From: Candidatus Iainarchaeum sp.
Lineage (GTDB): Archaea > Iainarchaeota > Iainarchaeia > Iainarchaeales > GCA-2688035
Assembly: GCA_028713935.1 (NCBI GenBank)
Contig: JAQTNI010000026.1
Location: 1-5,615, forward strand
Length of the DNA: 5,615 nt
Direction: 5' to 3'
Each line of letters starts with the position of its first letter. The stretch's first letter is position 1. Positions 1,992 to 2,138 of this stretch are shown here, piece by piece. The position numbers and the translations under genes are program-made. Below the pieces are notes generated by a model. That model saw nothing but the letters and a program-made list of their open reading frames with translations, ran no database searches and was not told the origin of the DNA.

Positions 1992-2032
1992 CCTTCTTTG
2001 AGCAAATTTATTGGGCTGAAACTGAGCTCAAC

Positions 2033-2138
2033 GGGGACTTATTGTGTGTCTACACCAATAGGCCGTTACTGTAGCTCAGCCTGGTAGAGCAATCGGCTGA
2101 AGACCGGTGTGTCGCGGGTTCAAATCCCGCCAGCCCCA
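2033..2138 (+). tRNA. tRNA-Phe (anticodon GAA) with a non-canonical 32-nt intron between positions 4 and 5
   Basis: The spliced sequence is GGGG|CTG-TA-GCTC-AGCCTGGTA-GAGC-A-ATCGG-CTGAAGA-CCGGT-GTGTC-GCGGG-TTCAAAT-CCCGC-CAGCCCC-A, and it folds into a full cloverleaf. The acceptor stem has 7/7 Watson-Crick pairs (2033-2036 plus 2069-2071 with 2131-2137). The D stem is GCTC/GAGC. The anticodon stem is ATCGG/CCGGT with one T-G pair. The anticodon GAA lies at 2099-2101 with T33 and G37. The variable loop is 5 nt, the T arm has the archaeal-type loop TTCAAAT, and the discriminator is A2138. CCA is not encoded. Without splicing, the contiguous 5' strand GTTACTG (2065-2071) pairs at only 4 of 7 positions. 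Confidence 0.85.
2037..2068 (+). other. BHB-type (splicing-endonuclease) tRNA intron in the acceptor stem, position 4/5
   Basis: The motif is a strict hBHBh' arrangement.
- Central 4-bp helix: ACGG (2031-2034) pairs with CCGT (2063-2066).
- Two 3-nt bulges: GGA (2035-2037) and TAC (2067-2069).
- Intron hairpin h': CTTATTG(T)GTG (2038-2048) pairs with CACCAATAGG (2053-2062) around loop TCTA.
- Outer helix: leader CTGAGCTCA (2022-2030) pairs with TG(T)AGCTCAG (2070-2079), with one bulged T.

Cutting after the second nucleotide of each bulge (2036|2037 and 2068|2069) gives exactly the GGGG-CTG junction needed for a perfect acceptor stem. Confidence 0.75.

Follow-up and report, generated by a model that had tools for sequence, protein, structure and literature searches.

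The 5,615-nt stretch of DNA analyzed here, referred to below as the window (GenBank assembly GCA_028713935.1, contig JAQTNI010000026.1, positions 1 to 5,615 of the forward strand, from Candidatus Iainarchaeum sp.), very probably carries a functional tRNA-Phe(GAA) gene of a DPANN archaeon that is split between tRNA positions 4 and 5 by a 32-nt archaeal bulge-helix-bulge (BHB) intron. The gene, which had been pointed out in a preliminary description of this DNA made from the sequence alone, stands beside a gene predicted to encode a LAGLIDADG homing endonuclease, and both features were found together in relatives.

The tRNA-Phe gene and its predicted intron

The exons, the intron, and the leader segments that take part in the predicted precursor fold are the following.

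2033-2036, + strand: exon 1, a GGGG micro-exon (tRNA positions 1-4) giving a 7/7 acceptor stem with 2131-2137
2037-2068, + strand: predicted 32-nt BHB intron at tRNA position 4/5, supported by fold, covariation, and in-silico splicing
2069-2138, + strand: exon 2, tRNA-Phe positions 5-73 starting with C2069, from the Rfam alignment and from ARAGORN on the spliced sequence
2022-2030, + strand: leader strand of the outer (exon-side) helix, pairing over 9 bp with 2070-2079 (tRNA positions 6-15, U2072 bulged) in the minimum free energy (MFE) structure
2031-2032, + strand: leader bases -2 and -1, forming with 2065-2066 the outer two pairs of the 4-bp central helix

The 3′ acceptor strand of the gene, CAGCCCC (2131-2137), requires GGGGCUG as its partner. 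Joining GGGG (2033-2036) to CUG (2069-2071), located 32 nt downstream, supplies this partner, and no junction other than GGGG|CUG gave a 7/7 acceptor stem, in agreement with what the preliminary description had claimed. When 2033-2036 and 2069-2138 were joined in silico, ARAGORN called a 74-nt tRNA-Phe(GAA), where the unspliced sequence returned no tRNA call and none was obtained anywhere in the window. Rfam, and ARAGORN on the spliced sequence, gave a cloverleaf with the anticodon GAA and the discriminator A73 (A2138), and the CCA end is not encoded. The predicted splice junction in the RNA reads GGGG-CUGUAGCUCAG, also written GGGG-CUGUAGCUCAGCC. This spliced product is identical at 69 of its 74 positions to the intron-free tRNA-Phe of a related locus, L022 (the closest of the 119 intron-free loci described below), with the same acceptor stem GGGGCUG/CAGCCCC. 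Close relatives thus encode, in uninterrupted form, the tRNA predicted here as the mature product.

The RNAfold MFE structure of 2015-2145 reproduced exactly the textbook 3-4-3 BHB that the preliminary description had drawn (central helix ACGG/CCGT, bulges GGA and TAC, 10-bp intron hairpin, 9-bp outer helix). Its 4-bp central helix is formed by ACGG (2031-2034) and CCGU (2063-2066), with two 3-nt bulges on opposite strands, GGA (2035-2037) and UAC (2067-2069), and with flanking helices on both sides, i.e., a strict hBHBh′ motif. The intron itself comprises A2037 (third base of the 5′ bulge), the 10-bp hairpin (2038-2062, U2045 bulged), the central-helix strand 2063-2066, and U2067 and A2068 (the first two bases of the 3′ bulge). 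In the canonical motif, the central helix includes positions 34-35, and the RNA is cut at 37/38 (PMC4090602). The same register places cleavage after the second base of each bulge, here at 2036/2037 and 2068/2069 (GGGG|CUG), so the canonical cuts coincide, as had been claimed, with the junction that the acceptor stem requires, and the exons that they release join into a canonical tRNA. The BHB-constrained fold of the window sequence lies at most 0.5 kcal/mol from the MFE.

As anticipated, scanners that assume a contiguous gene fail at this locus: in addition to the missing ARAGORN call, Rfam aligned 2065-2138 contiguously (49.4 bits) with three of the seven acceptor pairs non-standard. This alignment would suit a decayed tRNA gene that is read contiguously (GUUACUG/CAGCCCC, 4/7 acceptor pairs) and whose BHB-like fold is fortuitous, as would the z-score of only -2.0 obtained for the fold of the whole region. 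However, the arrangement of a BHB with GGGG is expected by chance in only ~4 of 100,000 cases. In this test, the 120 nt upstream of 2069 were shuffled, and a strict BHB was required that has its 3′ cut at 2069, GGGG as exon 1, and flanking helices of no fewer than 3 bp (intron side) and 2 bp (exon side); 8 of 200,000 shuffles matched. A naive BHB scanner, which at low thresholds returned many false positives, served as a guide only.

Relatives, covariation, and the order of processing

A set of intron-free genes was obtained with a pattern for tRNA-Phe bodies carrying a GCCCC 3′ acceptor end, which found 119 loci in GTDB genomes. The acceptor stems of these loci are all contiguous (117 at 7/7 and two at 6/7), and none of the 119 has an intron in its first ten bases. 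DNA patterns for the exact tRNA body had zero matches in viral contigs or GTDB genomes. A scan of 241 million metagenome records that forbade G at position 4 identified one further intron case, L121; another locus from the same scan, L122, proved to have a simple A4.C69 mismatch and no intron. A homologue of the endonuclease protein is encoded just upstream of the L121 tRNA-Phe gene. This protein was then used as a query, and contigs were retrieved for eleven further endonuclease homologues. A tRNA-Phe gene adjoins each homologue, and each such gene is split near its 5′ end, with the predicted introns distributed as follows.

Intron at 4/5: window, L121, L143, L123, L126, L129, L133, L147
Intron in the 3/4 register: L146
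Intron at 9/10: L144, L145, L141

Many of these relatives have extra introns in the D-arm, at 30/31, at 37/38, in the variable region, or at 59/60, with four introns predicted in the tRNA-Phe gene of L129 (1770-1995) and five in that of L133 (3470-3740, minus strand). In-silico splicing restored a 74-nt ARAGORN tRNA-Phe in every locus tested (9/9, plus the five-intron L133). For L141, the exon structure was resolved for the 9/10 intron only. Rfam missed the tRNA-Phe gene in all the multi-intron relatives except L147, where its match is a spurious contiguous one. The related tRNA-Phe genes of L126, L129, and L144 carry the T-loop UCCAAAU, in which C replaces the near-universal U55.

To evaluate pairing, the nine loci of the 4/5 class (with L146 in the 3/4 register) were aligned, anchored on the splice sites, and the columns of the central helix and of 7 bp of the intron hairpin were scored (11 pairs). 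The preliminary description held that related loci should show compensatory changes in the ACGG/CCGT helix and in the leader/exon-2 helix, and such changes were found in both. In the alignment, 89.9% of the cells are paired, with double changes in 8 of the 11 pairs, including both leader-intron pairs. None of 500 shuffles reached the observed covariation score or the observed percentage of pairing, and control alignments in which the partners were slid by 1-3 columns paired at 29-46%. The central helix reads ACGG/CCGU in the window, GCGG/CCGU in L123, CUGG/CCAG in L126 and L129, UUGG/CCAA in L147, and UUAG/CUAA in L146. The leader strand of the outer helix has the consensus GGYUGAGC, and in L147 this helix is preserved by compensation, the leader GUCUGAG facing the exon CUCAGAC. 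Judged from this comparison, the helices, including those made of leader bases, are shown to be under selection.

The acceptor stems point in the same direction. They are 7/7 in ten loci, in each case only after splicing, and they covary across the splice junction: base 4 of the tRNA, the last of the micro-exon, changes from G to A exactly where base 69 changes from C to U, so that GGGA stands opposite ..UCCC (L129, L133, L146, L144). The leader is also strongly complementary to the D-arm side of the gene. RNAduplex gave -11.8 kcal/mol for the leader against tRNA positions 6-18 in the window and -12.0 to -18.1 kcal/mol in eight relatives, as compared with a mean of -3.5 kcal/mol in the 119 intron-free loci, where the strongest duplex reached -10.3 kcal/mol. 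A decayed gene with a fortuitous fold is thus very improbable, since the same architecture recurs with compensatory changes in eight other loci, the acceptor stems of all the loci are perfect only once spliced and covary at 4:69, and the strong leader complementarity is absent from the intron-free genes.

Some observations weigh against the BHB reading. The outermost pair of the central helix is an A.G mismatch in three loci (ACGG/CCGG in L121 and L143, AUGG/CCAG in L133). The unconstrained MFE favors a slipped register in 5 of 12 loci; in these 12 loci, the BHB-constrained conformation lies 0-4.3 kcal/mol above the unconstrained MFE. Lastly, anchoring on the splice sites biases the alignment towards the structure, although the margin over the controls is still large.

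The preliminary description had noted that A2031, C2032, and the whole outer helix strand (2022-2030) come from the leader and had concluded that splicing must occur before 5′ trimming. The fold and the alignment bear out the first point. The first leader-intron pair is A-U, G-U, C-G, or U-A depending on the locus, and the second is C-G or U-A; as both of these pairs (leader bases -2 and -1) covary, the leader bases must belong to the folding RNA. This supports the second point, the covarying leader-intron pairs being sequence-level evidence of splicing on a leader-bearing precursor. The precursor would be transcribed with a leader of roughly 20 nt, in which bases -11 to -3 would pair with tRNA positions 6-15, and bases -2 and -1 together with G1 and G2 would pair with the 3′-terminal part of the intron; the remainder of the intron would fold as a hairpin to give the strict 3-4-3 motif. 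Before splicing, the exon 1 bases are thus divided between the central helix (G1-G2) and a bulge (G3-G4), and the outer helix takes up positions 6-15. The sequestration of these exon 2 positions, which had also been proposed, is consistent with the MFE structure and with the leader/D-arm duplexes of -11.8 to -18.1 kcal/mol. Following the established archaeal pathway, the splicing endonuclease would cut after G4 and before C5, RNA ligase would join GGGG to CUG, and formation of the acceptor stem and trimming of the leader would become possible only after splicing.

Two elements upstream of the gene bear on the extent of the leader.

1984-1999, + strand: conserved A/T-rich box TTAATAAACCTTCTTT, overlapping the endonuclease stop codon; candidate TATA element ~26 nt upstream of 2013
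2013-2018, + strand: far-leader GGGCUG, complementary to the 3′ acceptor strand (2131-2136) and partly paired in the MFE structure (inverted repeat I2)

The block TTAAAAAA..TTCTTT is near-invariant in an alignment of seven endonuclease-bearing loci and the endonuclease-free L022, and a box TTAAWAAA..TTCTTT was found in L022 and in all the loci where the endonuclease and tRNA genes are in tandem. If the box at 1984-1999 is the TATA element, transcription would start near 2013, and the required leader would be present. A second A/T-rich box lies at 2004-2012, ~25 nt upstream of G1. If this one were the TATA element instead, the transcript would begin near G1 and be too short at its 5′ end for the leader helices; the covariation of the leader pairs argues against this possibility.

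The far-leader element could also be taken for the true 5′ exon, joined at 7/8 after removal of 2019-2071 to give the junction UGGGCUG-UAGCUCAG. GGGCUG is indeed fully complementary to CAGCCC (2131-2136), and it covaries in L123, where GGGUCG stands opposite CGACCC. A GGGYYG element complementary to the 3′ acceptor strand occurs in four loci including the window, the other variants being GGGUUG in L143 and GGUUG in L121. However, position 1 would be U2012 opposite C2137, no BHB is present at those junctions, and L121 and L143 have only imperfect copies of the element, which L126, L129, L133, L146, and L147 lack altogether, whereas GGGG or GGGA with a BHB is universal. Such an exon is therefore scarcely credible, and GGGG at 2033-2036 is retained as exon 1. 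The far-leader element may serve to close the precursor with a surrogate helix, or it may be left over from a duplication of the tRNA 5′ end.

The neighboring LAGLIDADG gene and its linkage to the introns

The gene immediately upstream of the split tRNA-Phe gene, which together with it makes up a conserved pair of genes, did not figure in the preliminary description and is, in our view, the most interesting feature of the locus.

1247-1987, + strand: free-standing LAGLIDADG homing-endonuclease gene, 246 aa, with the motifs LVADLMGDGHL and RRYFDCEG and with profile and model matches

The open reading frame (ORF) has a weak match to Pfam LAGLIDADG_3. Both motifs retain the catalytic acidic residues (D48 and E149), and D48/G49 and C148/E149 are invariant in 15 homologues of 40-60% identity. 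A profile search with the family matched the endonuclease domains of archaeal V-ATPase inteins in the PDB and intein-containing proteins in NCBIfam. The AF2 model (pLDDT 94.6, pTM 0.91) has the alpha-beta-beta-alpha-beta-beta-alpha double-domain fold, and Foldseek placed it with the TliVMA intein endonuclease, PI-PfuI, I-Tsp061I, and I-DmoI (E 9e-11 to 1e-6). On this basis, the product is a free-standing monomeric double-motif LAGLIDADG homing endonuclease whose cleavage activity is predicted. The family comprises at least 73 clusters (E<=1e-30) in a set of 1.84 billion representatives. Viral contigs contained no match to the family, a result that speaks against a provirus.

All 12 of the distinct homologues looked up adjoin the 5′ side of a tRNA-Phe gene that is split at 3/4, 4/5, or 9/10. 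Nine are in tandem with the tRNA gene, with the endonuclease stop codon 25-45 nt from the leader, and three are divergent. In L141 (4790-4830), exon 1 of the tRNA, GGGGCGGTA (positions 1-9), lies inside the last endonuclease codons and the stop of the ORF lies in the 22-nt intron, so the tRNA precursor must overlap the mRNA. The L141 contig also has a gene for a 162-aa protein resembling the splicing endonuclease EndA (7282-7770). Conversely, of 120 tRNA-Phe loci whose acceptor strand is unsplit, none had the endonuclease gene within the contig DNA examined.

The L022 locus (6066-8000) constitutes a syntenic empty site with respect to L123 (3445-8732) and L121, as it has neither the endonuclease gene nor the intron. 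The three share the order tRNA-Lys(UUU), tRNA-Lys(CUU), deaminase (77% identical), tRNA-Phe, NUDIX (58-66%), and Ig-like protein, and L022 is as close to L121 and to L123 as these are to each other. The endonuclease gene is thus optional, being present or absent at the same site, and it also occurs in degenerate form. The ORF is frameshifted (~1094-1113) in one lineage, represented by the four independent assemblies L129-L132, and in L144 it has a premature stop at codon 211 (1473-1475), and yet the adjoining tRNA-Phe genes still appear spliceable, with four introns in L129 and two in L144.

These broken copies fit the decay of a selfish endonuclease and argue against an essential maturase or a required splicing factor. 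A maturase-like RNA chaperone that aids the folding of the split pre-tRNA-Phe, and is for this reason kept beside the gene, would equally be expected to co-occur strictly with split tRNA-Phe genes, and the bI3 LAGLIDADG maturase is among the structural neighbors of the model. We nevertheless consider such a role improbable, as the catalytic acidic residues are conserved throughout the 15 sequences, the introns beside broken ORFs remain spliceable, and known strict BHB motifs need no helper (PMC4090602).

Regarding the protein as an active endonuclease, we tentatively propose, as the most likely reason for the linkage, that in genomes without the endonuclease its target is the 5′ part of the still unsplit tRNA-Phe gene, and that the intron either breaks this target or is co-converted with the endonuclease gene. 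What is constant across the linked loci is the disruption of the first ten tRNA bases (introns within positions 3-10), even where the intron position differs, as between L144 (9/10) and L126 or L129 (4/5), whose endonucleases are ~63% identical. The intron would break the DNA target and leave the mature tRNA unchanged, and the endonuclease gene and the intron would persist and spread together. The co-occurrence suggests an endonuclease-driven spread, or protection, of archaeal tRNA introns.

A model for this exists in collaborative homing, which the account in PMC6083498 (Zeng et al. 2009) describes for the free-standing F-CphI and an ORF-less group I intron of the cyanophage psbA gene. As in that system, the endonuclease gene is free-standing, the intron in the gene beside it is small and ORF-less and could interrupt the target, and a related genome has neither the one nor the other. 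Unlike that system, the intron is a protein-spliced BHB intron in an archaeal cell genome, and the likeness concerns the genes, cleavage and protection being proposed. By analogy, and with slightly more reserve than for the target itself, the pair may be an archaeal counterpart of collaborative homing, in which a cut near positions 4-10 would be repaired by copying the endonuclease gene and the intron into naive genomes.

Several results stand against such a mobile unit. The gene for a distant homologue, P0028, has no tRNA-Phe gene next to it, which limits the association to the close subfamily. The endonucleases share only 40-70% identity, and the introns are dissimilar in sequence, meaning that any transfers must be old. 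The association could also reflect shared descent. If linkage were due only to vertical inheritance, L022 would be an outgroup or would have lost both features independently, and an old association of this kind, with no recent transfer visible and no family member in viral contigs, would match those identities. However, the unit is found in both orientations and in differing neighborhoods (LysRS; SerRS/tRNA-Lys/deaminase; EamA; divergent; and others), L022 lacks precisely both features even though it is equally close to L121 and L123, and the intron position varies (3/4, 4/5, 9/10) but always falls within the first ten bases, where introns are otherwise extremely rare. Vertical descent as the sole explanation is unlikely, if still a serious contender to targeting of the tRNA-Phe gene by the endonuclease.

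To account for how archaeal tRNA introns arise and move, reviews invoke transposition by an unknown mechanism or protection from integrating elements. At the loci compared here, introns within the first ten bases of a single tRNA gene go strictly together with a homing-endonuclease gene, and a relative provides the syntenic empty site. If true, collaborative homing would offer a testable mechanism for the gain, fixation, and multiplication of non-canonical archaeal tRNA introns. No link of a free-standing LAGLIDADG gene with tRNA BHB introns was found in the searchable literature, the coverage of which is incomplete.

Comparison with known introns and other features of the window

Non-canonical BHB introns at many positions, and several per gene, are well documented (PMC4090602, PMC4033280). 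The preliminary description had called acceptor-stem introns rare, which stands insofar as the first ten tRNA bases are an extreme intron location (PMC4090602). They are not unprecedented, as introns at 3/4 were reported in Thermoproteales (Sugahara et al. 2008, as cited in PMC4090602). Like these, the window intron is predicted to be protein-spliced, has a 3-4-3 BHB, and lies outside 37/38 in the acceptor stem, so near base 1 that leader bases must be borrowed, and its relatives are multi-intron genes. It differs from the Thermoproteales introns in its position (4/5, and 9/10 in some relatives), in its mesophilic-type low-GC DPANN lineage, in its 4-nt micro-exon and long conserved leader/D-arm helix, in the strict linkage to a homing endonuclease, and in the number of introns, up to five. 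New in this intron are therefore the 4/5 position, the 4-nt micro-exon, the long leader/D-arm helix, and the DPANN host, and not the acceptor-stem location as such. Among its relatives, the four introns predicted in L129 and the five in L133 exceed the maximum of three per tRNA gene given in reviews (PMC3239211, PMC4033280).

The split tRNAs of Nanoarchaeum equitans and Caldivirga are comparable in that a leader or trailer outside the mature tRNA supplies helices of the motif and splicing comes before end maturation; in the present gene, both exons are on one transcript, which would be spliced in cis, and the motif is strict and not relaxed. The archaeal rRNA BHB introns encoding I-DmoI and I-Tsp061I likewise combine a BHB intron with a monomeric double-motif LAGLIDADG protein, and both enzymes are among the model matches. 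Here, by contrast, the 32-nt intron does not contain the endonuclease gene, which lies upstream of it, the split gene encodes a tRNA and not an rRNA, and the window protein is closest by sequence to intein endonuclease domains. Disrupted tRNA genes are known in DPANN archaea, whose tRNA sets are left incomplete by standard tools (PMC5829648). As standard scanners miss the gene described here, DPANN genomes can appear to have no tRNA-Phe.

Upstream of the endonuclease gene, the ORF 16-1185 codes for a class I lysyl-tRNA synthetase that starts at profile position 146, and its N-terminus may lie upstream of the window start. Downstream of the tRNA gene, a cupin-like ORF (2199-2477, 92 aa) has a partial Cupin_2 profile match and may be truncated. 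Between the tRNA gene and this ORF, the trailer of the tRNA gene contains the following element.

2144-2164, + strand: T-rich trailer with a perfect 10-bp hairpin TTTTCTTCTT/AAGAAGAAAA (inverted repeat I3), directly following the tRNA

An 8-bp inverted repeat (2149-2156 with 2182-2189) is found shortly ahead of the start of the cupin ORF at 2199. Together, the trailer hairpin and this repeat are probably terminator or 3′-end signals.

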